Source of the DNA: a virus | Length of the DNA stretch: 64,000 nt | Virus record (IMG/VR): IMGVR_UViG_3300045988_180775 | Strand: one strand, 5' to 3' | Part shown: positions 1 through 61,205 of the stretch, piece by piece | Numbering within the stretch: the first letter of the stretch is position 1 | How the letters are laid out: each line of letters starts with the position of its first letter | The notes under the pieces: model-generated | Told to the model about the DNA's origin: nothing | The model's database searches: none | What the model saw: only the letters and a program-made list of their open reading frames with translations | Program-made: the position numbers and the translations under genes

Positions 1-470
1 ACGGCCTGGGCATCATTAGACGGAATGAGTTCAGGGGTGCCCACCTTGTCGTGGTAGGTCTCCTGCGCCGTTTTGTACCGGCTCTCGCCACGGATGGCGG
101 CGGCGTCAGAGCCGCCGATGCCGAAGTGACGAAGGGCCTCCCACTCTTTCGTCTGCACGAAAGCGCAGTCAACGACAACCTCCGCATTCGGCCACTCGAA
201 GCGATGCTCGACAGGCTTCCCGTCGTAGCTGTTCTGCACCCACATGGCAAGTTCCACGCTGTCCATCCGCTCGAACAGGTCAAAGCTGTTGTCAAACAGG
301 ATTTTGGCCGTCTTCGCGAACGCCGCGCCGTCCATGCCGGACTTTGCGAGCGCGTCATCGAGTTTTGCCATACGGGCCTTAATGACCTTCACCGTGTCCT
401 CGAAGTAGGACCGTTTTCCCGCACAGATGTGCGGGCAGGAATCAGGCAGATTGCATTCAAAATAACTCAT
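1..470 (-). CDS. YqaJ-like viral-recombinase-domain exonuclease (N-terminal part; gene continues past window start)
   Basis: Not in ORF track (no stop in window). ATG at 470-468 with RBS AAGGAGAATGAGAA upstream. Translation MSYFECNLPDSCPHICAGK...ALRHFGIGGSDAAAIRGESRYKTAQETYHDKVG carries the IGGSD..I.G motif of YqaJ/lambda-exo family. ATGA start/stop overlap with upstream gene. Confidence 0.6.
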   Translation of the reverse strand, partial: MSYFECNLPDSCPHICAGKRSYFEDTVKVIKARMAKLDDALAKSGMDGAAFAKTAKILFDNSFDLFERMDSVELAMWVQNSYDGKPVEHRFEWPNAEVVVDCAFVQTKEWEALRHFGIGGSDAAAIRGESRYKTAQETYHDKVGTPELIPSNDAQA

Positions 471-784
471 TTCTCATTCTCCTTTTTGTACTTTTTCTTC
501 GCGCATTCCGGGCAGAGGACGTTTTCGCCGCTCTGCATCATGGTCATGTAGATTTCCTGTCCAAACGCGCTGATGAAGCACTTGGAGCAGAAAACCTTTC
601 CGCATCCTTCCGCCCCACACGACCACAGTTCCCCGTGGACGTCATCGGAGGCGTCCCACTTTGCGTTGTGGCCGCAGAAATCGCAGGTGTAGGTATCTGT
701 CTTTTCGACATACATAAGCAGTTCTCCTTTCATGGGCGGCGGTGTGGGATTGCTCCGCACACCGCCGTAATCACTTACTTCCAA
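467..784 (-). CDS. Cys-rich zinc-ribbon protein (105 aa)
   Basis: ORF with paired CxxC motifs (CDFCGH...CGAEGCGKVFCSKC...CPEC). Translationally coupled to downstream exonuclease gene. Confidence 0.5.
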   Translation of the reverse strand: MEVSDYGGVRSNPTPPPMKGELLMYVEKTDTYTCDFCGHNAKWDASDDVHGELWSCGAEGCGKVFCSKCFISAFGQEIYMTMMQSGENVLCPECAKKKYKKENEK

Positions 785-1971
785 GCAACTGTTCCACCGA
801 TGTCATAATCGGACCAGTTGAGGTTCAGCGTCTTTCCGATAAGCTCTTCCAGCTCCAGAACCTTCGCATCGCTCGCACCTGCGTGCTTGGCGTAGGTGGG
901 AATTTGTGCCATGCTCAGGTAGATGTCCAGCGCAGACATACGCGGGGAGTTGATAGCAAAGGTATCAACTTCTTCACGCGCAGGGTCAGCATACTTTCTG
1001 GGGATTTTCAGGTAGGAGCAGATGCCAACGAGGCAGTTGACGGGATTGGAAATTTCCATGCTTCCCATCTTCTGCATCATTGCTGCGCCATCCTCAAACA
1101 GCGCATACAGTCCGCCCGCTTCGTCCTCAAATTTCTCCAGGCCGTACTTCCCTGCCGCCTGCTTCTTGTGCTCGACACGGATTCCCTTTCCAATGGCAAA
1201 GGAGAAGGAACCGCCGGGGGACATCAGCTTCGGCATCAGAATCGCCGAACTGGTCGCCGTGTCGCTGGTAGACAGACGGACAACAGGAACCCAGTTGATG
1301 GCGTGATTCCGAGAGACTGCGTTCGACAGCGCCTTCTGGTACTTATCAATGAGTTCGTCTCGGACGTCGGGCAACTCCCAGACAGCGCTGGTATAGCTAT
1401 GGGAATTGAACCCTTCCTTGAACTTCGGGACGCCGAATCGGTTGTTCAGCTTCTCCTTCGTGATACGGACCAACTCGCTGATGCGCATAATGGCGTAACC
1501 GTCGGATGCGCCGCTGTGCAGCGCGGACAGTTTGCCATAACGCAGCAGGAGAAGCCCGTTTCCCTTGGCATACCGCAGAGCGATATTCAAGCACTGCGCA
1601 AGGTCGGCAAACCCTTCCGCTTTCACCATGTTCGCATTGGCGGGGCCAATCAAACCGGCGGTGGTGTAGAGTGTCGCACGACCGGTATCACGCAGGCACC
1701 AGGTTGTGCCCTGATACTGAACCATGAGGTTCGTACCGTAACCACCATGCAAATCGTTGACGGCGGTATCATGTGCCGTATCATGGTCAACGCCATACTT
1801 TGCCACAGCGTCCGCTACGAACATCGGCCCATCCAGAGGAATGACCTGAAGCTCTTTGCGAGGGATTTCGGGGAGCCACTCGCTGTTGTTTTCCATGTCC
1901 CGGATAGAGTCGATAAATTCCGACTCGTCATGGAACATTTCTTGGAAATCGTCAAAAATCTTGCTGCTCAT
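775..1971 (-). CDS. hypothetical protein (398 aa), first gene after cassette copy 1
   Basis: Long minus ORF, balanced composition, conserved RBS AAAAGGAGAAATGAAAAA immediately upstream of ATG. No recognisable motif. Confidence 0.6.
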   Translation of the reverse strand: MSSKIFDDFQEMFHDESEFIDSIRDMENNSEWLPEIPRKELQVIPLDGPMFVADAVAKYGVDHDTAHDTAVNDLHGGYGTNLMVQYQGTTWCLRDTGRATLYTTAGLIGPANANMVKAEGFADLAQCLNIALRYAKGNGLLLLRYGKLSALHSGASDGYAIMRISELVRITKEKLNNRFGVPKFKEGFNSHSYTSAVWELPDVRDELIDKYQKALSNAVSRNHAINWVPVVRLSTSDTATSSAILMPKLMSPGGSFSFAIGKGIRVEHKKQAAGKYGLEKFEDEAGGLYALFEDGAAMMQKMGSMEISNPVNCLVGICSYLKIPRKYADPAREEVDTFAINSPRMSALDIYLSMAQIPTYAKHAGASDAKVLELEELIGKTLNLNWSDYDIGGTVAWK

Positions 1972-2146
1972 TTTTTCATTTCTCCTTTTCGTGAATTATT
2001 AGGTGATATATAAAAGCCAGTATCCGCAAGGGATACTGACTGAACTTTCTTTATGTATGTGATACTTCCTTTGTATGGTCTCAGCATACCGGCGGATGAA
2101 GAAAACGCCTTATTCTCCTTTCAAGAACCCAAGAACCGAGGAACTT
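1972..2146 (-). promoter_or_regulatory. conserved intergenic cassette copy 1 (GAACC repeats, hairpin A, hairpin B, U tract, conserved TIR)
   Basis: Shares about 120 bp near-identity with six other intergenic copies. Hairpin B 2018-2038 (cagtatcc/ggatactg), hairpin A 2073-2089 (gtatg..catac), GAACC x3 at 2124-2144. Confidence 0.7.
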
Positions 2147-2334
2147 TACGGCCCAGTAAGGCAACGAAGCCTTTCCTCCCGGAAAAACAGTGCAAATATG
2201 CCCTCTCATGGTGCATTTCTGCTCTTGCATGGACCTTTGGAATCCGGACAAAAAAGCGAGCAGGCATTAAGCCTGCTCGCGGTTTGCGGTTCGCTGAATG
2301 CGGATTCAGTTTTAGCCCCGAAAGGTGGCAAAAA

Positions 2335-2634
2335 CTATTTATCGCATTGGCTCTCAAGATAATCCACATCATCCACATATCCGGATACGCGGATATGCAG
2401 AAAGTTTTCGTCAGGCTCTACACCAACGACATCGTAGCTGATTTCCGATAGGCAGCAATTCAGCCCGACGAGACGCTCGGTAAGAATATCATCGAATCCT
2501 TCCATGTCATTTTCAATGATGTCATCCAGCGAGATGCCAACGACACCGGAAATTTGGCCGTCATCATCGAGATTTTTCAGAATTTCTGCGGCGGTGTAAG
2601 GCTGTTCCATAACCGTGTAGTTTAAGAGTCCCAT
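2335..2634 (-). CDS. small acidic hypothetical protein (99 aa)
   Basis: ORF with RBS AAAGGAGAAGC before ATG at 2634. Confidence 0.5.
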   Translation of the reverse strand: MGLLNYTVMEQPYTAAEILKNLDDDGQISGVVGISLDDIIENDMEGFDDILTERLVGLNCCLSEISYDVVGVEPDENFLHIRVSGYVDDVDYLESQCDK

Positions 2635-2678
2635 TTTGCTTCTCCTTTTGTGTTTTATTTCTGTTCCGGAAAGATAAT

Positions 2679-4433
2679 TCAGGGGTTTGCGGCAAAAAGC
2701 AGGTTACTGATTTCTCCGCACACAGCGTAGATGCCGGCGGTATCTTTCTTTCCGCTGGCTCCGGAGGTAAGTACGACCACGCCGCAGCCCGTGTCAGGAT
2801 TGTAGCACATGAGGTTGTACGCACCGTATGCGCTGCCGGTGTGATAGAACAATCTGCTCTGCCCATAGGTATTGGCTCGCAGACGCAGAGGCTGGCACTG
2901 GTAGAATCCGCCGGACACAGCCTTATCGCCGTGTGACTCCAATGTGGAGACGATGGACGGAGAAAGGTATTGTGCGCCCTCGTATTTGCCATCACCGGCA
3001 AGCAACGCCACAATTTTTCCAAGGTCGTAGGCGCTGATGGTGAGTCCGCCTGCGAATCCACTGCCGTCCGTACCGGGCAGTTCGTCATCAATAGCCTTGA
3101 GCATTTCCTGGTAGGACAGGCCCGTGCTGCCATCGGCACGGTAGAGCACCGCCAGTTTTTTCGTATCGGATACACTCCCTGTTCGGAATGCCGCGTCGAT
3201 GGACAGTGGACGGTAGAGGTAATGTCCAAGCAGCTCGTCCATCGTGCAGCTGTTTGCTCGCTCGACCGCAAGCCCCAGTGCAGAGAAGGCGTAGTTGTTA
3301 TACAGCCAGTTTTCCAAGTTGCCGGAACAGACCTCGCGTGTCGCAGACGAAGACATGAGTCGCGTCTTCATCCCCTCATAGCTTCTTGATACATCCTCCG
3401 GTGCCCTGAGAGAAGATGTATGTGTGAGAACGGAACGGACTGTAATGTGGTCTCCTTCCTGTGCTTTGTGGATGGGAAAACCGAGGTAGGTGTCCAGCTC
3501 TGTATCGAGAGTCATCGTTCCTTCTTCTGCGGAAAGGCTCGCTGCCATACCAACAAGCACTTTTGAGATGGATGCAGCCCGAACTTTCGTATCTGCTGTC
3601 ATGGCTGATACTCCGCGAACCGCCTCTCCATACGCAAAGGTATCTGATACATGGCCGTCCTTAATGTACGCAATCGACAGACCGACCGCACCGTACTTTT
3701 TTGCAATCGCATTGATTCTGTTTTGCAACGCTGCGTGCTGTTCTGTGGCCTGCACCACGGCTGACGCCGGGATTGTCCGGACAACAGGTCCGTTATTCTG
3801 GAGCCAGCAGCCGAGTGCGAGAATCATATCGACAGCTTCTTTATGATTCATCGTGCCTTTCGGCTCGAATCCTTTTTCTGAAGCGGTCAGGATGCCGTTC
3901 TCCATGCACCATTTCACAGCTCTTCTCGCGTAAAGCGGGACCTGCGCGGCGTCAGCGCACGCAAGCAGCGTGCGGGATGAAAGCGGAGCGGCGTCACAGC
4001 CCATCGCCTTCGCCAGACGGGCAGCCATCACAGCGGCCTCATTCCGTGTCAGCGGTGTGTCCGGCTCCAGTACGCCGGCCGCCGTGCCATTTATGATTCC
4101 GTTTGCCTTTGCCCAGCTCACCTGAAGCGCGTAGTATGCGTTCTCCGGAACATCGGGGAACGATGTGCTCTGAACCGTATCAAGCTCCGGGTTTGCGAGG
4201 TTCACCAGCATGGTCAGGAACTGCGCCCGTGTGGTCTTACCTTCTGTCTCAAGCATTTCTTCCAGGATACCGTCCGGCACGCCGGCTTCAAGACTCTGAG
4301 TCGGCTCAGTGTTATACGTTGCGTCTCGCACCTCCGTATCGGTCTCAAATTCTAATGCTGCGGAGCTTGGCGTCGCGAAAAGCAGCAGCAAAAAAGCCGC
4401 AGCAAATGCGGTAAATTTTCTTTTCACGTTCAT
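2679..4433 (-). CDS. secreted SLH-domain serine hydrolase, beta-lactamase/PBP4 family
   Basis: N-terminal signal peptide (MNVKRKFTAFAAAFLLLLFATPSSA). SLH-like repeats (FPDVPENAYYALQVSWAKANGI...LTRNEAAVMAARL). Serine hydrolase motifs SISK (SxxK) and YNN. Confidence 0.75.
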   Translation of the reverse strand: MNVKRKFTAFAAAFLLLLFATPSSAALEFETDTEVRDATYNTEPTQSLEAGVPDGILEEMLETEGKTTRAQFLTMLVNLANPELDTVQSTSFPDVPENAYYALQVSWAKANGIINGTAAGVLEPDTPLTRNEAAVMAARLAKAMGCDAAPLSSRTLLACADAAQVPLYARRAVKWCMENGILTASEKGFEPKGTMNHKEAVDMILALGCWLQNNGPVVRTIPASAVVQATEQHAALQNRINAIAKKYGAVGLSIAYIKDGHVSDTFAYGEAVRGVSAMTADTKVRAASISKVLVGMAASLSAEEGTMTLDTELDTYLGFPIHKAQEGDHITVRSVLTHTSSLRAPEDVSRSYEGMKTRLMSSSATREVCSGNLENWLYNNYAFSALGLAVERANSCTMDELLGHYLYRPLSIDAAFRTGSVSDTKKLAVLYRADGSTGLSYQEMLKAIDDELPGTDGSGFAGGLTISAYDLGKIVALLAGDGKYEGAQYLSPSIVSTLESHGDKAVSGGFYQCQPLRLRANTYGQSRLFYHTGSAYGAYNLMCYNPDTGCGVVVLTSGASGKKDTAGIYAVCGEISNLLFAANP

Positions 4434-4450
4434 AAAAAATATTGGCCGCT

Positions 4451-4490
4451 CCTCCCCCCACGCCTTTCGGCGCGTGGGGGAGAAACGGCA
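4451..4490 (-). terminator. GC-rich hairpin between genes (possible terminator/attenuator)
   Basis: ctcccccacgc...gcgtgggggag inverted repeat. The T-run on minus strand lies about 10 nt after the stem, so terminator function is uncertain. Confidence 0.35.
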
Positions 4491-4508
4491 TTCTCCTTTC
4501 CGATAAAA

Positions 4509-5054
4509 TTATTGCCATCTCACGGCATGGTAGATTCCCGCTCCCTGTTCCGGGTCATTTTTGCTTGCTGGAAGGTCTTCATAGTGGACGCCCCGCATCT
4601 TCCGGGTAATCTTGATGGGATACGGAAGAGCTGCGTTGTCCTCGTTGTAGCAGGCAATGTCGATGCCGACGCCGCGAAGCTCGGCACTATAGGGCCGGTA
4701 TAAGCTGACGGTTTCCCTCAGATGCTTGTCGAGCGCGTCACGCAACTGCTCAAACGGGATGGACAGGTCTGCAATGACCGGATACCATCTGAAATCCTTC
4801 AGACGGTACTGCTTTACGCTCCCGTTGTAGAAGCGGTGGATATGCGGAAGCAGGAAGTCCGGATTCTCCGCGATGAATGCGCGGTTCCACCGAACGACCA
4901 GTTCGTACACATCCTGCCCGTTGAACTCGCCGTAGCCTTCATAGCATGGCTCGTGGATAAAGGTCCCGTCCGGGCAGGCAATATAGCCTGCCCGGTCAGT
5001 ACGCAGGTTCTGTGTGTTGTCAGTATCGGCAAAAAGCCAGGAAAAGCATCCCAT
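4509..5054 (-). CDS. hypothetical protein (181 aa)
   Basis: Track ORF 4509..5231 trimmed to in-frame ATG 5054 preceded by GGGAGGCGGAGAC. Upstream 59 codons look like noncoding read-through (R/S/T rich). Confidence 0.55.
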   Translation of the reverse strand: MGCFSWLFADTDNTQNLRTDRAGYIACPDGTFIHEPCYEGYGEFNGQDVYELVVRWNRAFIAENPDFLLPHIHRFYNGSVKQYRLKDFRWYPVIADLSIPFEQLRDALDKHLRETVSLYRPYSAELRGVGIDIACYNEDNAALPYPIKITRKMRGVHYEDLPASKNDPEQGAGIYHAVRWQ

Positions 5055-5145
5055 GTCTCCGCCTCCCCTCTCACGCCGCGTTGGAACGAATGTCCGTGAG
5101 GATACGCTCCAGCGCCTTGTATACGCCGGACGGCGTAAGCGCGTG

Positions 5146-5487
5146 CTATTCCTTCGACAGGTCATTCCCTCTCCCGTGGTTCCACAGGAGAAGTGTGAAG
5201 ATTTCAGGGTGCTCCGCAAACACGCGGCCATATACGGCCTTCGTATCGGCGTTCAGGATGGACACGGTAGCATTCATCCCCCGGTTCTTGAGCGCACGGC
5301 AGATGCGCCGTGCCTCCAGACGGAGCGCCTGCTTGGATTCATCCAGCAACTTCCCATCCTCGCTCATGTCGAAGTAAATGGTTAGGTTGCCATTGAACGC
5401 ACCATGCACAGCGCCGCCATCCACGATATCGAACAGCTTCACGTTCTCAATGTCATATTCAAAACGCACCAATGTTCTCATTGTCAT
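5146..5487 (-). CDS. hypothetical protein (113 aa)
   Basis: ORF, coding-like composition. Confidence 0.5.
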   Translation of the reverse strand: MTMRTLVRFEYDIENVKLFDIVDGGAVHGAFNGNLTIYFDMSEDGKLLDESKQALRLEARRICRALKNRGMNATVSILNADTKAVYGRVFAEHPEIFTLLLWNHGRGNDLSKE

Positions 5488-6266
5488 TTTTCTCCTTTAC
5501 CTTCTTCAAAAATGATTTTGGCTGCCTTGCGAAGCTCCGCGACCTTTTTCGCTTTATTTCCCGTGTCATCCAGGTCGAAAGTAAGGGCAGCATCCTTGAA
5601 CCGCGTACAGCCATTCAGAGCGTCATCCCAGAGCGCACCGCGTTCCTCCTGTGCCTTGCTGAGCAGCGCCGCCTTATCCGAAGACGCGGCGAGCTGCTTC
5701 TTCAGCGCGGGGAAATCGCGTTCGTCCATTTCGCAGGCGTTCGTATACTCGAAACGCTCATAGAGCGAATCAAGGTACTGGGTGGCTTTTTTTGTTAAGC
5801 CAAAACCCCTTACATAGACGTCTTTCCCGGCAGAATCGCTCAGGAAGCAGAGGCTCGGATTGGACTGCGCGGAGAATTCGTAGACCGCCTCGCAGACAGC
5901 CTGCAAATTTTCCATGCTTTCTTTACGATTGGGGACATCTTTCCCTTCCAGATGTTTGGTCAGGAACTCCTCCAAGCCTTTGCGCTCCTCAGACGGGAAT
6001 AACCATGTGGCTCGCCACGAATTCCGCAGTAAGACGGGGTAGACCGCGCCGCCGACGAGAATGGCGAATTCATCCGCCGCGTCATCTCCGAAGAACTCAA
6101 GAGCGCTTCTGAGCCACGGCAGCAAGGCAGAAGAAACTACATCTTCGGCGATATCCGCCGCTCGTGTTTCTTCCTGAATACCCTGTACGCAACGCGCCAT
6201 AATCGTGAGGTCGTAGATACTCTGCGGCTTTCCGATGTGCCACGCATCGAAGATTGTCATGCTCAT
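5484..6266 (-). CDS. hypothetical protein (260 aa)
   Basis: ORF. 4-nt overlap with downstream gene suggests operon. Confidence 0.6.
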   Translation of the reverse strand: MSMTIFDAWHIGKPQSIYDLTIMARCVQGIQEETRAADIAEDVVSSALLPWLRSALEFFGDDAADEFAILVGGAVYPVLLRNSWRATWLFPSEERKGLEEFLTKHLEGKDVPNRKESMENLQAVCEAVYEFSAQSNPSLCFLSDSAGKDVYVRGFGLTKKATQYLDSLYERFEYTNACEMDERDFPALKKQLAASSDKAALLSKAQEERGALWDDALNGCTRFKDAALTFDLDDTGNKAKKVAELRKAAKIIFEEGKGEK

Positions 6267-6267
6267 T

Positions 6268-7182
6268 TTACGCCTCCCTTTCCGCCTGCTGCATCAGCTG
6301 GGCAAGGATATCGTAGGCGTCTGTACCCTTTACCTTGTTGAGCAGTGCCATTGTGTCCGCATAACGTTCTCTGATGACAGGCATACCGCAGAGCGCGGAA
6401 CGAACCTGAAAATATCCCGGCGTCCGCTTGGCGGCAGCCAGCAGATGTGCTACGTTGCAGACACTCAACTCTTCTGCGCATCCGGCCCACTCGAAGGAGT
6501 CTCGGCCGATGGGTGCGCCGTTGCGGGGTGGAGTATTCCGCTCAATGGCGTCCAGGTACTCCTGCGTGTAACGCTCGGTGGAGGTGTCTTGAAGCGCCTC
6601 ATAGGCCATCTTGAACGCGGCCAGCCACAGCCAAATGCGGTGTGCGATGGTTCGTCCCATATACGGGACGGTCTCCACGCCGTCCATGTCCATCTCCAGC
6701 CATGCGGAGAAGGCAACGGGATTTGCCACGAAGCCCTTCTCAGAGTTGAAGCTGCCCAGCAGGTCCGTTTCTCTCTCGTCGAGGTCGTCCTGATACTCTG
6801 TTTCTCCGTTTGCGAGCATATCGGGATGATTGTCCCTATACTCTTCCAGCAACATGGTCTTGCGCTCACGAAGCTCACCCTTGGCCGTTTCGTAATCAAA
6901 GAAGTAGTCGTCCGTTGTGCAGACAAACTTCTCCATGAAATAGCCGGGTTTCTTCCAGTAGCCGGAAAGAGCCTTCAAAGTGGCAGTCTCCGTCAGGCAA
7001 ATGACCGCAGAGCCAAGGTCTCCGGTGATATACACATGATAGCCGTCCATCACCGCACGAATCGCGTACGCCTGCGTCCCTGGCTGTCTCCAGTTCAGAA
7101 CGCGCACGTTTTCGTCCAGAATGTCGAGACGTGCCTTGTGGTTTGCGAATCGCTTTTCAGCTTTTACCATTTCCTGATTCAT
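6268..7182 (-). CDS. hypothetical protein (304 aa)
   Basis: ORF. The antisense plus-strand ORF 6235..7242 was rejected on composition. Confidence 0.6.
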   Translation of the reverse strand: MNQEMVKAEKRFANHKARLDILDENVRVLNWRQPGTQAYAIRAVMDGYHVYITGDLGSAVICLTETATLKALSGYWKKPGYFMEKFVCTTDDYFFDYETAKGELRERKTMLLEEYRDNHPDMLANGETEYQDDLDERETDLLGSFNSEKGFVANPVAFSAWLEMDMDGVETVPYMGRTIAHRIWLWLAAFKMAYEALQDTSTERYTQEYLDAIERNTPPRNGAPIGRDSFEWAGCAEELSVCNVAHLLAAAKRTPGYFQVRSALCGMPVIRERYADTMALLNKVKGTDAYDILAQLMQQAEREA

Positions 7183-7204
7183 TTTTTACTTCTCCTTTCC
7201 GCGT

Positions 7205-7396
7205 TCAGCAGTAGCTGCGTGCAAAATCCCGGTAAGCGTTGATACTCATTTCACAGTCATCGACCAGTCGATTGATGACGGAGATTTCGTCCTCGGCAAC
7301 ACCGGAATCCTGAAGCTGCTTGAGCTTCTCGTTCACTTCCTCTACGGTCTCACAGGTAGTGAACCGGTGAGAATGGAAATCCAAAACATAAAACAT
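7205..7396 (-). CDS. small hypothetical protein (63 aa)
   Basis: ORF with RBS GAAAGGAGAAGATATC upstream. Confidence 0.4.
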   Translation of the reverse strand: MFYVLDFHSHRFTTCETVEEVNEKLKQLQDSGVAEDEISVINRLVDDCEMSINAYRDFARSYC

Positions 7397-7418
7397 AGAT
7401 ATCTTCTCCTTTCGGTTT

Positions 7419-7649
7419 TCAAATGGTTGTGTTGTAATCCTTCATCTTCACTTGGATGATAATTTGCGTACATTTGACAGTCACGAATGTCACTTTTGCT
7501 TCCAGGATACCCGGCATAGCGACTGCCGGAATCTGGTATAGGCTGCGAAAATGCCCAATCTCCTGCAAGCCGACGCGAACTACGACAGGGATTTCATCGC
7601 TGGCGGCACCGATTTGGCTGCAAAAGTCGAAAACAGTCAGTTTCTTCAT
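7419..7649 (-). CDS. small hypothetical protein (76 aa)
   Basis: Track ORF trimmed to ATG at 7649 (MKKLTVFDF) preceded by GGGGGATAACCCT. Confidence 0.4.
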   Translation of the reverse strand: MKKLTVFDFCSQIGAASDEIPVVVRVGLQEIGHFRSLYQIPAVAMPGILEAKVTFVTVKCTQIIIQVKMKDYNTTI

Positions 7650-7664
7650 AGGGTTATCCCCCAC

Positions 7665-8210
7665 TCAGTTCCAGCAGAGATTCCTGATTTCGCGGTCAGA
7701 CAGACCAATCGTTCCATCCAGCATCTCCGTCAAGAACTCATACTGCTCGTCGCCAGTCATGCGGTCGGCATACTCCAAAACATTGTGGATAATGCGACCC
7801 GCCGTGCCGTCGATGTCGAAGTTGTTCAGAAGCCACTCGTAAGTGCCTTCGAGGCCGCAGGCTTCAGTCTCCTCGTCATCTGTGTCGGCGTTGCCATTTT
7901 CAAGAGCGTCAGCAAGGTCGTTGAGCATCTCTTGGATGGCGTCAGCGTCTTCCACCAACGTCTTGATGTCTGGCACACCACTCACGCTGCCCTGCGCATC
8001 GACCAACATCTTGACGTGTTCCTCGGTATCGAAGCTGTCCGCGTAAGAACGGACTTCGGCTGCAAGACTCTCGGCGTCAGATGCGTCTTTCGTCAGAACC
8101 GTGAAGGAGAAATCTTCCCCCGCCGGACTGCACTGGTTAAATTCGATGCTATCGCTGTCCATATCGACTGCCCATCCGTAGCTTTCTGCAATTTGAATCA
8201 TTTTTTCCAT
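7665..8210 (-). CDS. acidic hypothetical protein (181 aa), first gene after cassette copy 2
   Basis: ORF with conserved cassette TIR AAAAAGGAGAATTAAAAAATG. Confidence 0.55.
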   Translation of the reverse strand: MEKMIQIAESYGWAVDMDSDSIEFNQCSPAGEDFSFTVLTKDASDAESLAAEVRSYADSFDTEEHVKMLVDAQGSVSGVPDIKTLVEDADAIQEMLNDLADALENGNADTDDEETEACGLEGTYEWLLNNFDIDGTAGRIIHNVLEYADRMTGDEQYEFLTEMLDGTIGLSDREIRNLCWN

Positions 8211-8381
8211 TTTTTAATTCTCCTTTTTTGAAATTTTTTTGATATATAAAAGCCAGCATCCGTATGGACGCTGACTGAATTTTCTTTGTGTTTGTGATAC
8301 TTCTTTTGTATGGTCTCAGCATACCGGCAGGCACGGAAAACTCCGCATTTTGCAAATTGGAACCTAAGAACCGAGGAACCT
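8211..8381 (-). promoter_or_regulatory. conserved intergenic cassette copy 2
   Basis: Hairpin B cagcatcc/ggacgctg at about 8256-8275, hairpin A 8309-8325, GGAACCTAAGAACCGAGGAACC at 8359-8380. Confidence 0.7.
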
Positions 8382-8404
8382 CAAATCTGGAGTGTGAAAA
8401 GACA

Positions 8405-8440
8405 AAAAGAAAAAGCGCCGCCCACAAAGGGGCGGCGCTC
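8405..8440 (-). terminator. rho-independent terminator (minus orientation)
   Basis: gcgccgccc-acaaag-gggcggcgc stem followed on minus strand by TTTTTCTTTTTGTCTTTT. Confidence 0.7.
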
Positions 8441-8444
8441 AGGT

Positions 8445-8657
8445 TTAAGACTTGGGAATGGCCTCCAGAAAGGGTTCGACCTTCCGGAACACCTTCTCAG
8501 AGCAGAGAACATTATTTCCGTTGCCAAGGTGCAGTTCCACGCGGTCGCCGATTCTGTTCCAGACCTTCTCCCCGTGCAGTGTATAGACGGGTAGGCTGCC
8601 GTATCTGCCGGCTTCCACGGTATGCAGCAGAGACGTCAAGTTCTTGATTTTATACAA
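8445..8657 (-). CDS. small hypothetical protein (70 aa)
   Basis: ORF directly followed by terminator. Confidence 0.45.
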   Translation of the reverse strand: MYKIKNLTSLLHTVEAGRYGSLPVYTLHGEKVWNRIGDRVELHLGNGNNVLCSEKVFRKVEPFLEAIPKS

Positions 8658-9411
8658 GGGCCGTCACCTCTGTCATTTCCCCGTCGCAACGGAGAATCTT
8701 GAAGACCGCCATATCCACATTGGGATATGCCTCGGCAATCTTCTGGGCAACCTCGGCCTTGGAGGCTGCGTATACGTCCATGACGAGCATGGGACCACCG
8801 CAGTCCGCCCAGTTGCCCTCCTGGGATTCATCCATCGGGTCAGCATCCTCGGACAGCTGTTGGGGGAAGTAGCCCTGCGCGTCGCGCACATACGAGCTAT
8901 TCAGGAACACAAGATAGCGGCATTCCGCAACCTTGTCCCTGACTCGCTCAAAGAAGGCGCTGGCATCGAAGAGCTTTACCGCTTCCTCAAAGTGACTCGC
9001 ACACTCCTCCGCAGGGACAAACAGGGCAATTTCGTCACCCTCCGGGTCGGTATCCTCGCCGAACAGAACGGTCCCCCACGGCTTGCACTGCCTGGTCAGT
9101 TCCGTTGCAATGCTGCGGAGCGCTTTCCTCGCCTTCTGTTTGGCGTCCTTGACAGCAGGGACATCCATCCAGTTACTGTTGAACATCGTCGTGAGGAGCA
9201 TCCCATCCTCGCCGCTGTAAGTGACCGTATAGAGATTTGCGTCGCAGCCGGGGCTGAACTGATAGTGTTCGTACAGTTCCTTCACCGCAGCGGGAAGCCG
9301 CTCAGAGTCACCTGTCGAAAACCCAGAACCGGGATAGTTTACCTCGCCCTCGGCGTTACACCAGTAATACATGGAATCGGTCTGATATGCTTTGTTCAAA
9401 CTTTTAATCAT
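8650..9411 (-). CDS. hypothetical protein (253 aa)
   Basis: ORF. 8-nt overlap with next gene. Confidence 0.55.
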   Translation of the reverse strand: MIKSLNKAYQTDSMYYWCNAEGEVNYPGSGFSTGDSERLPAAVKELYEHYQFSPGCDANLYTVTYSGEDGMLLTTMFNSNWMDVPAVKDAKQKARKALRSIATELTRQCKPWGTVLFGEDTDPEGDEIALFVPAEECASHFEEAVKLFDASAFFERVRDKVAECRYLVFLNSSYVRDAQGYFPQQLSEDADPMDESQEGNWADCGGPMLVMDVYAASKAEVAQKIAEAYPNVDMAVFKILRCDGEMTEVTALV

Positions 9412-9440
9412 TTTTCATTTCTCCTTTTTCCGTATTTTTC

Positions 9441-9986
9441 TTATTCATTGCCCGCCCGGATAACCGCAGCGACGGCCTCTGGCGTCGCGCCGATGGCATC
9501 CGTATAGTTGATGAACTCGTCCTCGGCATAGTCGCGTCCGCCCACGATGTAGGCAGAAACTACCATAGTCCAGAGGTGTTTGAAATCCTCAACGGACATA
9601 TCGGCTGGCCGCTTAGCCAGCAGCCTTGGATGGGTCTTGGCAACAATGTCCAGCAGGGCATCTTCGTCGATGGTCTTGCTGTACGCATAGGTCTCCTTGT
9701 CGTTCAGGAGTCGTTCGACCTGTGCGGCCAGGATTTCGACGCGCTCATAAGCGGTCAGCTCCCCGGCACCGTCGTCAGGACCGCAGCCGTTGTCCAGCTG
9801 GGCCTGGAATGCGGCCAAGTCCTCGTCCCAACAGGCGGTGTGTGCCAAGTAATAATAGGCGTTCTCGGCAGCCACATTGACGTCGAACATGGAGTCATAC
9901 TCCAGCTCGTCCAGTGCCCTGTCGATGACCTCCCGAACCCGTTTAAGGGTGAGAGAGGAGGATTCGTAGTCTTTCAGCAATTTCAT
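9441..9986 (-). CDS. hypothetical protein (181 aa)
   Basis: ORF with RBS GAAAGGAGACAGAAGC. Confidence 0.55.
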   Translation of the reverse strand: MKLLKDYESSSLTLKRVREVIDRALDELEYDSMFDVNVAAENAYYYLAHTACWDEDLAAFQAQLDNGCGPDDGAGELTAYERVEILAAQVERLLNDKETYAYSKTIDEDALLDIVAKTHPRLLAKRPADMSVEDFKHLWTMVVSAYIVGGRDYAEDEFINYTDAIGATPEAVAAVIRAGNE

Positions 9987-10014
9987 GCTTCTGTCTCCTT
10001 TCGAGTCAAGAAAA

Positions 10015-11446
10015 TCAGTTGTTGGGCTTCAGAATATCGGGTATCCAGTTTTCAGCAGATGGCCTGCGGAGACTCTCCGGCACGCAATCATAGAACGCTG
10101 AATTTTCCGCCACAGCCATGTCGATAATCCAGAAATCGTCACCATTCTGCATCACGTCGATGCTCCACTGGCCTTGCAGGTCAAGCGCCGGCAGGAATTC
10201 CCGAATGTGTTCCACCACGGAATCGACATTCTCATGGTAGCGCCGCATCAAGGTCGCTTCGTGACTTTTGAAAATCACATAATCGTGCATCTGATGCGGA
10301 CTGTTTGCGTCCGAGCATGAACCAAAGCGATTGAGCATAGTCTTCGGCTCCCAATAGGGAGAGACACCGATGACAGCATCGCTGTCACAGTCAACAAATA
10401 CGCGATATTCCGTATGAAGCGGCAAACCATGATAGATGCAGGGATTTCCCTCTTTATCCGGAATGAATTCCCGCACGACCCACTCATTTGTCGTCGAGAC
10501 CCCATAAATGCAGGGAAAGCTAAGGGGACCGGCCATCTGTAACGCTTGATGGTGGATGTAGAGCAAAATACTCGCCAAGCTCTCGAACCTCTTTTTCTCC
10601 GTGTACCCGGCAATTCCGAAAGTCGAACTTCGATGAATAGGTGCCGGTTTTCACGAAGTAATCCCGCTCGTCATTCAGACGAAATACAGCGTGCGCCCAG
10701 TTATCGACGATTTGGATGGTCGAAGGCGTTAGGCTGTGATAGTCCAGACGAGTCAGCTGTAAGAGCGTCAGGGGGACCTTGGCTATCGTCGTTGCCGGAA
10801 TCCGGAAGAATCCAGAATCCCGGTAGGCACTCACAAGCTCCGGGAACCAATGTCCGATGGAGTTGCGATTCTGCCCGATGATGCGGTAGGCCAGCGCATC
10901 AAGGTCAAGGATGTCCAGTCCCTGCCGAAAGCGGTCATACGCATCCCTACGGTCCTTCGGCGTCTTCCCGTTCTGCATCTTGTCGTAGTAGAACAGGAGC
11001 GCAGCTGAGGCAGTGATGTCAAGGTCTCTCTTCATCAGTTCCCCACTCAGCTGCGGTCGCAGCGAAGCTGGAATTCGCAGCAGGTCCTGATTGGTGACAG
11101 GAGCATTTTTCTCCGGTGCGTTGGAAAGCGATTTTTCAATTTTGTCTGTTTTTCCATCATAAGTGTAGGTCAGCGTCTGCCCGATAAGCTCCTTCACGAT
11201 GCGCTCCGTAAGAGCTTTCAGCTCTTCCGGGCTGTCGTCGCCGAGCCGCTCGTTTTTCGCCGCTGCCTGCCTGGAATTGACCTCAAAAATGCTTTCTGGC
11301 TCAGTCTGCAACGCAGCTTTGGAATATGCCTTCTCGAAGGCGTCCAGTGCATCAGGACTGACGCGCAGGATTTCCGCGATTCGGTCTCTGCTGATGTTGA
11401 ATTTCTGCGCGGATGCCTGAGCAAACAGATTGTCTAATCCAAACAT
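10015..11446 (-). pseudogene. ATP-grasp-like protein split by a frameshift near 10520-10580
   Basis: Two ORFs (10520..11446 and 10015..10578) overlap by about 58 nt in different frames. Upstream part ends ...DYFVKTGTYSSKFDFRNCRVHGEKEV and downstream part contains EYRVFVDCDSDAVIGVSPYW. Together these resemble one ATP-grasp fold. Confidence 0.45.
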
Positions 11447-11458
11447 CTTTACCCCCCC

Positions 11459-12205
11459 TTATGCAATTTGGAAATCGGCGTTTTTTACATAGTCTTCCGC
11501 TTTCTTCTGAAGCTGGTTGACCTTGCAAATCACGTTCTCCTCGTCGTCGATATCCTCGTAACTGCTGTCACAGCCGTCTACCACATTACCGTTTGCGGCA
11601 ATGTAGAGCGTATCGAAGGAAATGCTATCGTACTCCGTAGAGTAATCCGTTACCAGCTCGTCCATGTCGGTCCTGAGCACCTCCGGTGCTCTTACGCCGA
11701 TGCCGTTCTTGTTGGCACGGCCGGTATTGAGCAGCCAATTCAAATCGTCATCCTTGACCGAATGCTTTTTACCCCGGCCGAGGAAGGACAAGCCTCTCAG
11801 AATTTTCGCGTTGTCGTTGTCGCGGAACGCCTCGTGGAACATATCCACAGAGACATCGACCTCGCACATATCTGGCTCTTCCATCTTAGGATATGCCTCC
11901 AGCAGCGTCAGCGCGAGGTCGCGCATCTGCTCCTTCGACGCCGCTCCGTTGGTGGCAACGTAGAAAGAATTCGGCATCGTACCGTAACGCTCCGCAAGTT
12001 CAAAGTATCGCTTGATGGCCGGCACATTCAAAGATGGCTCGCCGCCCGTGAAAGTGACGGAACTGGGATAGATGTGCTTGGCGATTTCCGATAAGGTGGC
12101 TGTTGAAATGTCCAGATTCTGCGCATCTCCGCGCAGGCAGTGCTCGCATTTCATGTTGCAGCGCCGCGTGACCTCAATGACGAGGGACTCTACATGAATC
12201 TCCAT
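11459..12205 (-). CDS. radical SAM enzyme (CxxxCxxC; QueE/NrdG/viperin-like core)
   Basis: CNMKCEHC cluster motif at residues 16-23 and TFTGGEPSL glycine-rich SAM motif. First gene after cassette copy 3. Confidence 0.8.
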   Translation of the reverse strand: MEIHVESLVIEVTRRCNMKCEHCLRGDAQNLDISTATLSEIAKHIYPSSVTFTGGEPSLNVPAIKRYFELAERYGTMPNSFYVATNGAASKEQMRDLALTLLEAYPKMEEPDMCEVDVSVDMFHEAFRDNDNAKILRGLSFLGRGKKHSVKDDDLNWLLNTGRANKNGIGVRAPEVLRTDMDELVTDYSTEYDSISFDTLYIAANGNVVDGCDSSYEDIDDEENVICKVNQLQKKAEDYVKNADFQIA

Positions 12206-12385
12206 TTTTCATTTCTCCTTTTTTGTGATGGTTATGTGATATATAAAAGCCAGCACCCACGCGGACGCTGACTGAACTTTCTTTATGTTTGTGATACTTC
12301 CTTTGTATGGTCTGAGCATACCGGCGGAAGTGGAAAATGCCACATTCACCTTCCAAGAACCTGAGAACCGAGGAACTGGAGAACT
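12206..12385 (-). promoter_or_regulatory. conserved intergenic cassette copy 3
   Basis: Hairpin B cagcacccacgcggacgctg, hairpin A gtatggtctgagcatac, GAACCTGAGAACCGAGGAACTGGAGAAC at 12358-12385. Confidence 0.7.
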
Positions 12386-12396
12386 GCAAAGAAAAA

Positions 12397-12425
12397 GCGC
12401 CGTCCATTACGGGCGGCGCTTTTTC
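12397..12425 (-). terminator. rho-independent terminator (bidirectional shape)
   Basis: aaaaagcgccgtccattacgggcggcgcttttt, with A-run and T-run flanks. Confidence 0.75.
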
Positions 12426-12426
12426 A

Positions 12427-13344: not shown

Positions 13345-13382
13345 TTTTTCATTTCTCCTTATTGTTAAAAAATCGTAGATTC

Positions 13383-13586
13383 TCAGATGTCGTCATCACC
13401 GACATCGAACCCCAAATGACAGAATCCAAACTCGTCGGACAGCCAGTTGGAAATCGTGTCGAGCCATTCTTCCCTACTTGCAAAATGGGACTGGTCGAAT
13501 CTACTCGGCAGCTCGACTTCCTTCGGCAGGGAGGCAAGAGCCTCCCTGCCGCCATCGGTATCCCAAAGGATATTGCGGATTTTCAT
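13383..13586 (-). CDS. small hypothetical protein (67 aa)
   Basis: Trimmed to ATG 13586 with RBS AAAGGAGAAATAATG. Confidence 0.4.
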   Translation of the reverse strand: MKIRNILWDTDGGREALASLPKEVELPSRFDQSHFASREEWLDTISNWLSDEFGFCHLGFDVGDDDI

Positions 13587-15392: not shown

Positions 15393-15570
15393 TTTTTTCG
15401 TTTCTCCTTTTTGTTTATGAAATTTTTATATATAAAAGCCAGCATCCGCAACGGACGCTGACTGAACTTTCTTTGTGTTTGAGATACTTCTTTTGTATGA
15501 TTTCAGCATACCGGCAGAAGAGAAAAAATCACCTATTTCCTGATGGAGAACCTAAGAATATGAGAACTCG
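15393..15570 (-). promoter_or_regulatory. conserved intergenic cassette copy 4
   Basis: Hairpin B cagcatccgcaacggacgctg, hairpin A gtatgatttcagcatac (variant), GAGAACCTAAGAATATGAGAAC at 15545-15568. Confidence 0.65.
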
Positions 15571-15630
15571 ATTGTGGCAAAACATGGAAAAAGCGCCGGC
15601 GGATATTTTCATCCACCGACGCTTCAGTTG

Positions 15631-17442: not shown

Positions 17443-17606
17443 TTCTCCTTTTTGTTTATGAATTTTTTATATATAAAAGCCAGCATCCGCAACGGACGCT
17501 GACTGAACTTTCTTTGTGTTTGAGATACTTCCTTTGTATGCTCTGAGCATACCGGCAAATATGGAAACACGCCTATTTTAATGTTGGGAACCTGAGAACC
17601 GAAGAA
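17443..17606 (-). promoter_or_regulatory. conserved intergenic cassette copy 5
   Basis: Near-identical to copy 4. GGGAACCTGAGAACCGAAGAATAC at 17586-17609. Confidence 0.7.
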
Positions 17607-17680
17607 TACATATCGTCACGCGCAATGTCCGCTTCACGCTGGCGGAACTGCTCGATTGGATTTAAGAAACGGAGAATAGC

Positions 17681-17713
17681 AAAAAAACGCCGCCCATCTG
17701 GGCGGCGTTTCTT
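17681..17713 (-). terminator. rho-independent terminator after sigma gene
   Basis: aaaaaaacgccgcccatctgggcggcgtttctt. On minus strand the stem is followed by TTTTTTT. Confidence 0.75.
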
Positions 17714-18680
17714 ATTCAAGAAAGTCCTGAAGCATCTTCCCTGCCTTTCCGTTGCGTAGCTTATCGAGTGTTTTATCTGTAACCTGACGGACACGCTCTC
17801 GCGTTAAGTCCATTTCGTCCCCGATTTCTTTGAGGGTATAAGCACAACCATCCTCCAATCCGAATCGTAAGCGAAGCACACAGGCGTCTCGTGCGGGCAT
17901 ATCGTGCAGGATTTTGTCCATCGTTTCCCATAGTGCCTTCCCTGACGTTGAAATTTCCGGGTTATCCCACTCGTTATGGCTTGGGATGAATTCCGAAAGC
18001 GGTGTGTTGGAATCGCTTGCGGCGTCCGAATTGACGGGCGCATCCAACGAGTCCGGCTTCCGGTACTGGAGCGAGTGTTGGATGATGCGCAGTTTTTTCT
18101 GCTGCTCCCTTTTTGAAAGGGAATCCCACGCATCCCCCTCCATGTATTTTGCGATTTCTAAAGGGTCATCACAAGGTAAGCCTTTTTGCTGCATTTGTTC
18201 TTTTGCATTATTGACGCTCCGCCTGCCCTCCGCAACATAGATGGGCTTGCGAATGGCTGGGTCCGTCGTGGCAAGTGCTCTTGTGATGTTTTGCCTTATC
18301 CAGAAGGTTGCGTAGGTGGAGAACTTCACATTCCTCGAAATGTCAAAAGAGTCGATGGAACGCATGAGGCCGATGTTGCCCTCCTGAATGAGGTCCATGA
18401 ACACCATAGAATCGGCTGAGTTTATATATTTCTTTGCGATGGACACAACAAGCCGAAGATTGCCCTCAACAACCTTATCTTTCGCCCGTCTTCCTGCTTC
18501 TATGGCCTTCATCAGGTCTTTCTCGATTTCGGGGTCAACTGCATTCCCACTCTCCTCGGCAATCACCCGCAGCGTTTCGAGCTGTTCGGCAGCGGCATTC
18601 CCCTTCTGCGCTTTTTCAATACAGCGATTCGCTTCTACCTGCGGCATAATGGGGATGCTGCCAATTTGGCTGAGATACAT
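17712..18680 (-). CDS. RNA polymerase sigma-70 family factor (regions 1.2, 2, 3, 4), element-encoded
   Basis: DLIQEGNIGLMRSIDSFDISRNVKFSTYATFWIRQNITRALA (region 2.1-2.4). YTLKEIGDEMDLTRERVRQVTDKTLDKLR (region 4.2 HTH). VAMYLSQIGSIPIMPQ (region 1.2). Track start 18884 is a TTG inside the promoter -35, so I trimmed to ATG 18680 (GTG 18686 also possible). Confidence 0.85.
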   Translation of the reverse strand: MYLSQIGSIPIMPQVEANRCIEKAQKGNAAAEQLETLRVIAEESGNAVDPEIEKDLMKAIEAGRRAKDKVVEGNLRLVVSIAKKYINSADSMVFMDLIQEGNIGLMRSIDSFDISRNVKFSTYATFWIRQNITRALATTDPAIRKPIYVAEGRRSVNNAKEQMQQKGLPCDDPLEIAKYMEGDAWDSLSKREQQKKLRIIQHSLQYRKPDSLDAPVNSDAASDSNTPLSEFIPSHNEWDNPEISTSGKALWETMDKILHDMPARDACVLRLRFGLEDGCAYTLKEIGDEMDLTRERVRQVTDKTLDKLRNGKAGKMLQDFLE

Positions 18681-56558: not shown

Positions 56559-56750
56559 TTTTTCTGATTCTCCTTACTTGTTATTTTTTGATTTATATAA
56601 AAGCCTGCGCCCGTTGGGTGCAGACTGAACTTTCATTATGTTTGTGATACTTCCTTTGTATGGTCTCAGCATACCGACCTTTTTCTCGCTTACAGAATTG
56701 CGCTGTGCAGGAATACAGGTTCTTAGGAATAGAAGTACCTAAGAACCAAA
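56559..56750 (-). promoter_or_regulatory. conserved intergenic cassette copy 6 (contains perfect 10-bp palindrome)
   Basis: Hairpin B ctgcgccc/gggtgcag (entirely different arm sequence, pairing preserved). Hairpin A gtatggtctcagcatac. GGTTCTTAGG-N10-CCTAAGAACC at 56718-56747. Confidence 0.7.
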
Positions 56751-56763: not shown

Positions 56764-56788
56764 AAATCCGGGCCAGAAGGCCCGGATT
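56764..56788 (-). terminator. rho-independent terminator after VWA gene
   Basis: aaatccgggcc-agaa-ggcccggattt. On minus strand the stem is followed by CTTTTTGCCC. Confidence 0.65.
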
Positions 56789-60959: not shown

Positions 60960-61150
60960 TTTTTCATTTCTCCTTTTTGTTTTGTGTGATTTGGGATATA
61001 TAAAAAGCCAGTATCCGTAAAGGATGCTGACTGAACTTTCTTTATGTTTGCGATACTTCTTTTGTATGGTCACAGCATACCGGCCTTTTTGCCATTTGCA
61101 GAATTGTGATAAACAGGAATACAGGTTCCTGAGTTCCGAGGTGCCTGAGT
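60960..61150 (-). promoter_or_regulatory. conserved intergenic cassette copy 7 (GGTTCC motif in inverted orientation)
   Basis: Hairpin B cagtatcc/ggatgctg, hairpin A gtatggtcacagcatac. CAGGAATACAGGTTCCTGAGTTCCGAGG at 61114-61141, shared with copy 6. Confidence 0.7.
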
Positions 61151-61158
61151 GTTTCGGC

Positions 61159-61205
61159 AAAAAAACAGCAGCACCCATCCGGTATGGATAGATGCCGCTG
61201 GAAGA
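61159..61205 (-). terminator. imperfect hairpin plus T7 run after membrane protein gene
   Basis: cagcagcacccatcc-ggtat-ggatagatgccgctgg (12 of 15 positions pair, 3 mismatches) followed on minus strand by TTTTTTT. Confidence 0.45.

Follow-up and report, generated by a model that had tools for sequence, protein, structure and literature searches.

A repeated promoter and leader cassette in a large conjugative element of gut Oscillospiraceae

In the late region of lambdoid phages, the pR′-qut-tR′ arrangement combines a promoter, a conserved element at a fixed short distance within the initially transcribed region and an intrinsic terminator, and when the Q factor is lacking only a short RNA is made (PMC5001585, PMC6606751, PMC9388147). 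At pR′ of phage 82 the transcript is 21 nt long when the pause element is read, and the pause is at +25 (PMC5001585). Intrinsic terminators in the leaders of transfer-related operons have likewise been described in conjugative elements of Firmicutes, namely the zipper attenuator of pLS20 (PMC13401043), conAn (PMC8191782) and canT of Tn916 (PMC11658703), where expression needs read-through and the terminators insulate the transcription units. Here we describe a non-coding cassette of ∼175 bases that is present in seven copies, the first at positions 1972..2146, in a 64-kb stretch of DNA deposited as the virus record IMGVR_UViG_3300045988_180775 of IMG/VR (the whole of this stretch is referred to below as the window), which by its gene content appears to be part of a large conjugative element. 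The cassette is a real and uncommon regulatory module; promoter plus attenuator modules are known as a kind, and the element family to which it belongs is uncharacterised. With a confidence slightly above even, we read it from its sequence as a factor-dependent promoter with a −10 box only, joined to a promoter-proximal attenuator and shared by many operons. That it comprises a promoter and a transcribed leader with a conserved hairpin is well supported, initiation is likely to depend on a factor, and regulated read-through is plausible but unproven.

The cassette resembles the lambdoid arrangement in its three parts and their order, and its AAGTAT at +10..+15 (A at position 2, T at position 6) lies about where the pause element of phage 82 is found (PMC5001585). 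It differs in being present in seven copies in the window and at least 11-13 copies per element as against one late promoter per phage, and furthermore in the lack of a −35 box, in its Firmicute conjugative host and in that no Q-family protein was found in scans of almost all ORFs of the window. The −10-like hexamer is lost in the most distant of the relatives compared below (L064). We regard the resemblance as functional speculation and not as membership. The attenuators of pLS20, conAn and canT are single-copy, structured leaders of ∼280-456 nt heading one long operon, whereas the cassette is short, repeated and provided with a promoter of its own in each copy. The terminator is its only RNA structure, and it shows no sequence or Rfam similarity to these systems.

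Activator-dependent promoters without a −35 box include A3 of phi29 with p4, the late promoters of P2 and P4 with Ogr and Delta, and the middle promoters of T4 with MotA and AsiA. Like the cassettes, these form near-identical families with a housekeeping −10 box, have a conserved upstream protein site in place of the −35 box and constitute a second temporal class beside consensus early promoters. The cassette is distinguished from them by its direct repeats of 8-bp period (inverted in copy 7) at about −46 to −77, and by its leader terminator, which they lack. Short repeats of variable number and orientation upstream of many promoters of one plasmid also serve global co-regulation in the heptad operators of omega, a ribbon-helix-helix (RHH) protein of inc18 plasmids, and in the KorA/KorB system of IncP plasmids, both of which are repressor systems acting on competent promoters. 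The repeats of the cassette differ from these in sequence and in period (7 bp for omega), and no RHH or KorB-like protein was identified here. Being short, unstructured save for the terminator, repeated at many operons and without a recognised cognate factor, the cassette is a member of none of the systems compared.

Copies of the cassette and their placement

A search of the window with the core pattern GGTATGCTnnnnnCATACAAARGAAGTATC gave exactly seven matches, all on the minus strand (at 2061, 8296, 12293, 15483, 17524, 56646 and 61052), as against none in 100 shuffled sequences and none expected by chance. The family was also recovered by a repeat search of the window, and a covariance model of the leader returned the same seven sites with 86-99 bits, the next-best match scoring 15.9 bits. 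In every copy the unit extended from the distal GTTC repeat to the base preceding the ATG of a minus-strand open reading frame (ORF), and ∼150 nt were shared in a seven-way alignment. The core was near invariant, five discriminator positions being its only variable bases, and the hairpin differed in sequence among the copies with its pairing retained. These results agree with a preliminary description of this DNA, which had reported seven copies of one orientation that end at start codons: the core matches confirmed their number and orientation, the coordinates given there fit units ending just before the ATG of minus-strand ORFs, and the near-invariant core was recovered in the alignment. The covariance model and the search for further copies, both proposed in that description, yielded the same seven sites in the window and more copies in IMG/VR, GTDB and gut metagenomes, respectively.

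A canonical terminator consisting of a GC stem and a T-run precedes all seven copies. Strong intrinsic terminators had already been noted there, although for five of the seven copies only. As every copy lies between a strong terminator and a start codon, transcription must restart within the cassette.

All features of the seven copies are on the minus strand, and the starts are placed from sequence and from homology to canonical promoters. Copy 1 (1972..2146) follows a terminator at 2256..2280 (GCGAGCAGGC..GCCTGCTCGC with TTTTTTG) and has GTTC repeats at 2122-2145, the −10 hexamer TATGCT at 2083-2088, the predicted start at 2076, a conserved motif spanning +7..+16 at 2061-2070, the hairpin at 2015-2041, the U-tract at 2005-2014, the Shine-Dalgarno (SD) sequence at 1980-1987 and the ATG at 1971, which begins a gene of 398 amino acids (aa). 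Copy 2 (8211..8381), behind a canonical terminator at 8413..8440, has its GTTC repeats at 8359-8381, −10 at 8318-8323, predicted start at 8311, hairpin at 8251-8276, U-tract at 8241-8250, SD at 8218-8225 and ATG at 8210, and leads a 181-aa gene. In copy 3 (12206..12385), the terminator at ∼12392..12424 (GCGCCGCCCGTAATGGACGGCGC with TTTTTCTTT) is followed by four GTTC repeats (12356-12385), −10 (12315-12320), predicted start (12308), hairpin (12248-12273), U-tract (12238-12247), SD (12213-12220) and the ATG (12205) of a radical SAM gene. Copy 4 (15393..15570) stands behind a terminator at ∼15591..15621 (GCGTCGGTGGAT..ATCCGCCGGCGC with TTTTTCC); GTTC/ATTC repeats at 15546-15568 are followed by −10 at 15505-15510, the predicted start at 15498, hairpin at 15437-15463, U-tract at 15427-15436, SD at 15402-15409 and ATG at 15392, opening a 232-aa gene. 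Copy 5 (17443..17609) lies directly downstream of a sigma factor gene, the canonical terminator of which is at 17682..17710, and leads a 123-aa gene (repeats 17587-17609, −10 17546-17551, predicted start 17539, hairpin 17478-17504, U-tract 17468-17477, SD 17443-17450, ATG 17442). Copy 6 (56559..56750; canonical terminator 56765..56788) has repeats that include GGTTCTTAGGTAC at 56734-56747 and an inverted CCTAAGAACC, −10 at 56668-56673, predicted start at 56661, hairpin at 56602-56626, U-tract at 56592-56601, SD at 56568-56575 and ATG at 56558; it heads an operon with a 315-aa gene, ERF, a primase-like and a pilin-like gene, which continues to VirD4. Finally, copy 7 (60960..61150) follows a 15-bp stem with TTTTTTT at 61166..61200 and carries an inverted repeat pair (GGAACTCAGGAACC, 61124-61137) with a proximal TATTCC, −10 at 61074-61079, predicted start at 61067, hairpin at 61006-61032, U-tract at 60996-61005, SD at 60968-60975 and ATG at 60959, leading a 61-aa ORF followed by a 583-aa and a 713-aa gene. 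Among the genes named in the preliminary description, the radical SAM enzyme (11459-12205) and ERF (54816-55610) stood, but the label MoxR for 59000-60751 found no support in Pfam, PHROGs or NCBIfam.

The core promoter, its relatives and the element sigma factor

The −10 hexamer was TATGCT in all seven copies of the window and in 80 of the 92 unique cassettes from all collections; the other 12 had TATACT, the sole natural variant, which is a change towards the consensus TATAAT. The hexamer has the A at position 2 and the T at position 6 of a primary-sigma promoter. It is set in the layout cGG-TATGCT, followed by a 6-nt discriminator made up of five variable nucleotides and an invariant C, with the putative start at the A of CATAC, and the invariant C(−1)A(+1) is found 6 nt past the hexamer in the cassettes and in the relatives alike. 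From the sequence we conclude that TATGCT is in all likelihood a primary-sigma −10 box, and by homology to canonical promoters we place the transcription start at the invariant A six bases beyond it. A consensus promoter scan reported no promoter within any of the seven cassettes. No conserved hexamer was present at the −35 position, where none of the 92 unique copies had TTGAC, TTGA or TTGC, and the TG of an extended −10 (TRTG) was also absent, the hexamer being preceded by cGG (78/92) or CCG in the cassettes as against tGG or TGTGG in the relatives and in five consensus promoters of the window. The bases conserved where a −35 box would be are AAT at −38..−36, a T-run at −29..−25 and GCC at −17..−15. 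The earlier statement that neither a −35 nor a −10 of the sigma-A type is conserved was thus correct for the −35 box and incorrect for the −10 box. The missing −35 box suggests the need for an extra factor.

The five consensus promoters form a second class in the window. They are near-perfect sigma-A promoters, TTGAC(A/T)-17-TGTGGTATAAT, located on the minus strand at 18845-18884, 25887-25926, 30464-30503, 32766-32805 and 44167-44206 (the last with TTTACA at −35), each after a terminator and with a short leader of ∼10-30 nt devoid of a hairpin, and they drive the sigma gene, a UvrD helicase, a uracil-DNA glycosylase, a lipoprotein-like gene and a signal-peptidase/VirB4 operon. The presence of these self-sufficient promoters alongside the cassette marks the latter as a distinct, weaker and conditional class. 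The element thus has two promoter classes, one strong and self-sufficient and the other, that of the cassette, crippled and presumably dependent on a factor.

Upstream of the core, at about −46 to −77, the cassettes carry two to four tandem 8-bp repeats rGTTCYnn, and all 92 unique cassettes had at least two GTTC/GAAC motifs upstream. In the window the paired motif GGTTCYNRGGTTCY was confined to the cassettes (seven matches, 0.39 expected). The repeat pair of copy 7 is inverted (GGAACTCAGGAACC), which argues for recognition of double-stranded DNA by a protein and against a role in RNA. Other readings of the cassette were examined and rejected: a LexA/Cheo box, because the cassette has GTTC-N4-GTTC direct repeats and not GAAC-N4-GTTC inverted repeats; an antisense (countertranscript) promoter, because the plus strand has no consensus promoter there; and a ‘hairpin 1’ GTATG-N7-CATAC as RNA structure, because its natural G-to-A variant (TATACT) is uncompensated and both the −10 box and the start site fall within the stem.

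For comparison, orthologues of the 398-aa gene behind copy 1, found in other assemblies with 37-68% protein identity, were fetched with their flanks from four loci (L062, L063, L064 and L066). In these relatives the orthologue and several other operons are preceded by TTGAC(A/C/T)-17 bp-tGG-TA(t)AAT followed six bases on by an invariant C-A-T, i.e. C(−1)A(+1)T, and in an anchored table the invariant GGTATGCT of the window cassettes aligned base for base with their tGG-TATAAT. The promoter is followed by a leader with a purine-rich AWRGRASTAT at ∼+7..+16, 2-45 variable bases, a GC-rich hairpin and a ribosome-binding site, and the hairpin mostly continues into TTTT(T)ATATATA, with 5-7 U. Conservation in these leaders is limited to the +7..+16 motif and the hairpin flanks, the rest of the 5′ region varying even among the copies of one element. 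These textbook promoters with a like leader, together with the placement of the cassette between terminator and ATG, support the promoter and leader family that had been proposed in the preliminary description. A hexamer nAsTAT (A at position 2, T at position 6) occurs at +10..+17 in the window, L062, L063 and L066 and not in L064; the match is weak, and agreement at three of six positions arises easily by chance in AT-rich sequence.

Two of the relatives showed further peculiarities. In L062, at 9440-9700 on the minus strand, the same leader module stands on the opposite strand and leads a RelB/Zeta toxin-antitoxin operon; here GAGAACCTGAGAACT repeats, with the 8-bp period seen in the cassette, lie ∼70-95 bp upstream of a near-canonical promoter, suggesting that the repeat motif predates the loss of the −35 box. 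In L064, at ∼805-900, 3400-3450 and 9840-9910, the region of the hairpin allows a short hydrophobic ORF to be read after the purine-rich motif (MWIFICVGSFYIL..., MWIIICFGSLLAY..., MLSVWIFIHAANF). This ORF is absent from the window cassettes and may represent a leader peptide or a small membrane peptide of that lineage.

An explanation that we consider unlikely is that the element sigma (17712..18680, minus strand, 322 aa) reads the cassette through a non-housekeeping −35/−10 signal hidden in the invariant core. In its favour, a −35 box is missing from the cassette, and the sigma gene, directly upstream of copy 5, is expressed from a consensus sigma-A promoter of its own (18856-18884), which amounts to an early-to-middle layout; moreover, the protein is devoid of region 1.1 and carries H455Y-like and W433F-like substitutions, with which it might tolerate −35-less promoters better than the host SigA. 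However, it is RpoD/SigA-like, its best NCBIfam matches being RpoD models (E = 4e-65), and alignment with E. coli sigma-70 and with a Firmicute SigA whose structure has been solved showed that it keeps region 2.4 YATFWIRQNITR, region 4.2 TRERVRQ and the residues equivalent to Q437/T440 and R584/E585/R588. As the residues that read TATAAT and TTGACA are kept, no altered specificity is predicted, its expected targets are the class of the five consensus promoters, and the odd sequence of the cassette is not explained by this sigma. The −10 of the cassette is itself of the housekeeping type and homologous to the TATAAT of the relatives. The proposal in the preliminary description that the cassette lacks a housekeeping signal and is hence probably read by a special element sigma was therefore not upheld. 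The element sigma may read the cassettes through their −10 box and, from its sequence, is a candidate reader of both promoter classes.

In the search for a regulator, almost all ORFs of the window were scanned with Pfam, PHROGs and NCBIfam, a scope of 64 kb with ∼90 kb of the element lying outside it. The scans did find sigma-region-4-like proteins, an Xre-type helix-turn-helix (HTH) protein and an S1-domain protein. A 374-aa protein (20280-21404, minus strand) combines a sigma region-4-like HTH and a domain like the C-terminal domain of the RNA polymerase alpha subunit (alpha-CTD) with a widespread C-terminal domain, which weakly matches the ‘sce7726 family’ of NCBIfam (E = 7e-4) and is elsewhere fused to HTH, methylase and ParB-like modules; the full architecture was found only in close relatives of this element. 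A 139-aa protein consisting of sigma region 4 only (19913-20332, minus strand) is encoded next to it, both just upstream of the sigma gene. Region 4 of the extracytoplasmic function (ECF) type reads GGAAC, the reverse complement of the cassette repeat GTTCC, and we regard the proteins encoded at 19913-20332 and 20280-21404 as a sequence-based lead for the repeat-binding factor. A protein of 417 aa encoded within the transfer operon (42219-43472, minus strand) has one S1 RNA-binding domain and is a possible RNA-level regulator.

The leader hairpin and a proposed gating of transcription

From the predicted start to the ATG, the leaders of the seven copies measure 101-108 nt. The first 35 nt show almost no variation, are predicted to lack structure and contain the invariant motif AAGGAAGTAT at +7..+16. 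They are followed at +36..+62 by a hairpin with a GC-rich 12-bp stem and a loop of 3-5 nt, then by UUUUAUAUAU and a strong consensus ribosome-binding site. The upper half of the stem varies among the paralogous copies yet remains paired: 93.3% of cells were paired, with two-sided changes in seven of the 12 pairs, a result reached by none of 500 shuffles, and slid controls paired at 29-48%. RNA folding gave −18.5 kcal/mol (z = −4.2). Five of the top seven rows in a list of terminator-like structures for window positions 1-20000 were cassette hairpins; these are the five of the seven that the scan lists, the hairpins of copies 6 and 7 not being among them. Judged by every sequence criterion, the hairpin with GGCTTTTATATAT appears to be an intrinsic-terminator-like attenuator ∼65 nt past the start. 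An A-rich run just upstream of the stem (AUAAAGAAAG) partly complements the tail.

Known RNA elements were not recovered. Rfam 15 at gathering thresholds gave no match in the whole window, and a permissive search of copy 3 gave only a weak match to its upstream terminator. No structured antiterminator RNA of the put, EAR, conAn2 or canT type was found, the leader 5′ of the terminator being only ∼35 nt long, predicted to be unstructured and present in multiple copies. The +7..+16 motif keeps a fixed distance to the start and not to the hairpin, which ties it to initiation, early elongation or the 5′ end of the RNA. A leader peptide was rejected on account of a TGA at codon 3 in copy 7, the loss of the ATG in the TATACT copies and 1-nt differences in hairpin length that break the frame; the ATG in question, within GGTATGCTG, lies upstream of the predicted start.

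In the switch that we propose, the upstream repeats would most likely be the binding site of an element-encoded DNA-binding protein, and RNA polymerase with either the host SigA or the RpoD-like sigma of the element would start efficiently only with the help of the factor bound there. Without a read-through signal, most transcripts would end as an RNA of ∼65-70 nt, at a hairpin evidenced by covariation and predicted to terminate, and read-through would give an mRNA with a consensus ribosome-binding site. Read-through would be set by a factor through the start-proximal +7..+16 motif, acting on DNA or sigma while elongation begins, or on the nascent RNA at its 5′ end. The outcome would be a two-key switch, of initiation and attenuation, common to at least 11-13 operons of the element.

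Several points weigh against this proposal. The U-tract in the window is short, four U followed by AUAUAU, so that termination may be partial only. No alternative antiterminator pairing that covaries with the variable upper stem was found in the leader, and since no upstream segment covaries with it, classical alternative-hairpin (riboswitch-style) attenuation is unlikely. The scans described above found no Q, N, NusG/LoaP-like, ANTAR or BglG-type protein. The upstream repeats could be sites of a repressor rather than of an activator, and the near identity of the paralogous copies may be due in part to recent spread or gene conversion, rather than to every base being under constraint. Lastly, the start site, termination and read-through are all predictions from sequence.

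A more specific form of gating, which we consider possible but improbable, is a distributed, promoter-coupled antitermination, in which each of the at least 11-13 operons would have its own ‘qut-like’ site composed of the −10-only promoter, the start-proximal motif at +7..+16 as a recognition or pause signal, and the terminator at +36..+70. The ability to pass this terminator would then be conferred, by retained sigma or by a factor of the element as yet unrecognised, on those polymerases alone that started at a cassette, and polymerases entering from outside would be halted at it.

Similarly unlikely in our view is that the hairpin and its AU-rich tail serve RNA stability, processing or protein binding, with the purine-rich +5..+16 motif as a STAB-SD-like stabiliser, so that the leader would prolong the life of the mRNA and raise its translation, with no gating of transcription. 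The tail ATATAT and the base of the stem (UUCAGnCAGC...GCUGGCU) are conserved beyond the needs of termination alone, the +5..+16 motif occupies the slot of the real ribosome-binding site in the short-leader consensus promoters, and in the c1-type leaders of the window and in L066 it pairs with the 3′ end of 16S rRNA at −8 to −9 kcal/mol, better than shuffled sequences. In the AAAAGAAG copies of the window and in L062, L063 and L064, however, this pairing reached only −1 to −3 kcal/mol and was no better than in shuffles, and 5′ ribosome binding of the STAB-SD type was rejected as the general role of +5..+16, being strong in some lineages only. Furthermore, the hairpin begins at +36, too distant from the 5′ end for a 5′ stabiliser, and in the relatives, with 5-7 U, it is a textbook terminator.

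It is very unlikely that the actual product is the short leader RNA (∼65-70 nt) left by termination, as a multi-copy small RNA that acts in trans on targets of the host or the element and to which read-through is secondary. An unstructured, invariant 5′ region of 35 nt ahead of a terminator hairpin is indeed the architecture of a base-pairing small RNA, and at least 11-13 near-identical copies exist per element, but no complementary target of at least 11 nt was found on the sense strand of the window, the relatives conserve only the +7..+16 motif and the hairpin flanks in the leader, and each copy continues into a ribosome-binding site with its gene. Still less probable, although the natural idea for a conjugative element, is a single-stranded DNA promoter of the Frpo/ssi type, by which the transferred strand would fold into a hairpin resembling a promoter and establishment genes would fire on entry into the recipient. 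Repeated non-coding units before selected genes, recombination genes included, in a conjugative element with all genes on one strand do recall the leading regions of plasmids; yet folds of both strands of the seven cassettes with DNA parameters were no better than shuffled (z −1.6 to 0.0; also z = 0.37), and the short terminator hairpin was the sole stable stem, the −10 region lying in no long duplex. A dispersed repeat, selfish or neutral, of the kind of miniature inverted-repeat transposable elements and without a regulatory role, is suggested only by its many near-identical copies and is hardly credible, given the lack of terminal inverted repeats and target duplications, the uniform orientation of copies that follow a terminator and end exactly at a ribosome-binding site and ATG, the homologous promoter-leader modules at orthologous positions in diverged elements and the compensatory changes that maintain the hairpin.

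The host element and the reach of the cassette

The window encodes a VirD4-type coupling protein (44294-46570; Pfam E = 2e-49), matched best in PLSDB by entries with the annotation ‘VirD4-like conjugal transfer protein, CD1115 family’, as well as a VirB4-like ATPase (38767-41259) and a cell-wall (peptidoglycan) hydrolase (46579-47904). Weak matches were obtained to a TrbC/VirB2 pilin (52625-53176, below the Pfam cut-off) and to PrgI (41259-42131, E = 0.003). In addition to ERF, a primase-like protein, the UvrD helicase and the uracil-DNA glycosylase, it encodes SLH-domain surface proteins, and most of the other genes had no family match. The type IV secretion genes indicate that the ‘viral’ contigs of IMG/VR sharing this sequence are conjugative elements or at least carriers of a full transfer apparatus. 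The conjugative nature of the element had gone unrecognised in the preliminary description, as had the attenuator-like character of the leader hairpin. The minus strand holds all credible genes of the window, and GC skew stays negative over the full 64 kb, which fits one-directional transfer or replication.

The core was also present in IMG/VR contigs as long as 136 kb, with at least 12 copies on one of them, and in human-gut metagenome contigs of ∼150-159 kb. A single genome in GTDB, Oscillospiraceae bacterium CM18GR_63, carried it, with at least 11 copies on one 570-kb contig. All collections together gave the 92 unique cassette sequences, at ∼17 paralogous gene positions. No record of the PLSDB plasmids carries the cassette, and it was not found in the INPHARED phages. 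Identity as a phage was rejected, as no megablast match was obtained in INPHARED and the gene content is conjugative. From its sequence, the host of the cassette is best described as a large conjugative element of ∼150-160 kb from gut Oscillospiraceae, not clearly a phage, and integrated in the sequenced genome.

Apart from the cassettes, two SLH-domain proteins encoded on the minus strand (2679-4433 and 61749-62855), with a beta-lactamase/penicillin-binding-protein-like enzyme and an anthrax-lethal-factor-like metalloprotease domain, resemble cargo that would serve the cell envelope. A pair of 83-nt direct repeats with 76% identity and a spacing of 90 nt was observed at 49633-49805 inside the ORF at 49353-51998 (881 aa, no family).

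The cassette provides a map of a regulon, as it marks the starts of at least 11-13 operons and the genes that are controlled together, in a family of elements where most genes belong to no known family; large conjugative elements in gut Clostridia have hardly been studied. If distributed antitermination were true, it would represent a new way to insulate and co-induce a whole mobile element, by means of an undescribed antiterminator family. The read-through factor, if new, would add a type of antitermination system; otherwise the cassette would be a compact, portable and tightly off ‘promoter + attenuator’ part for Firmicutes.

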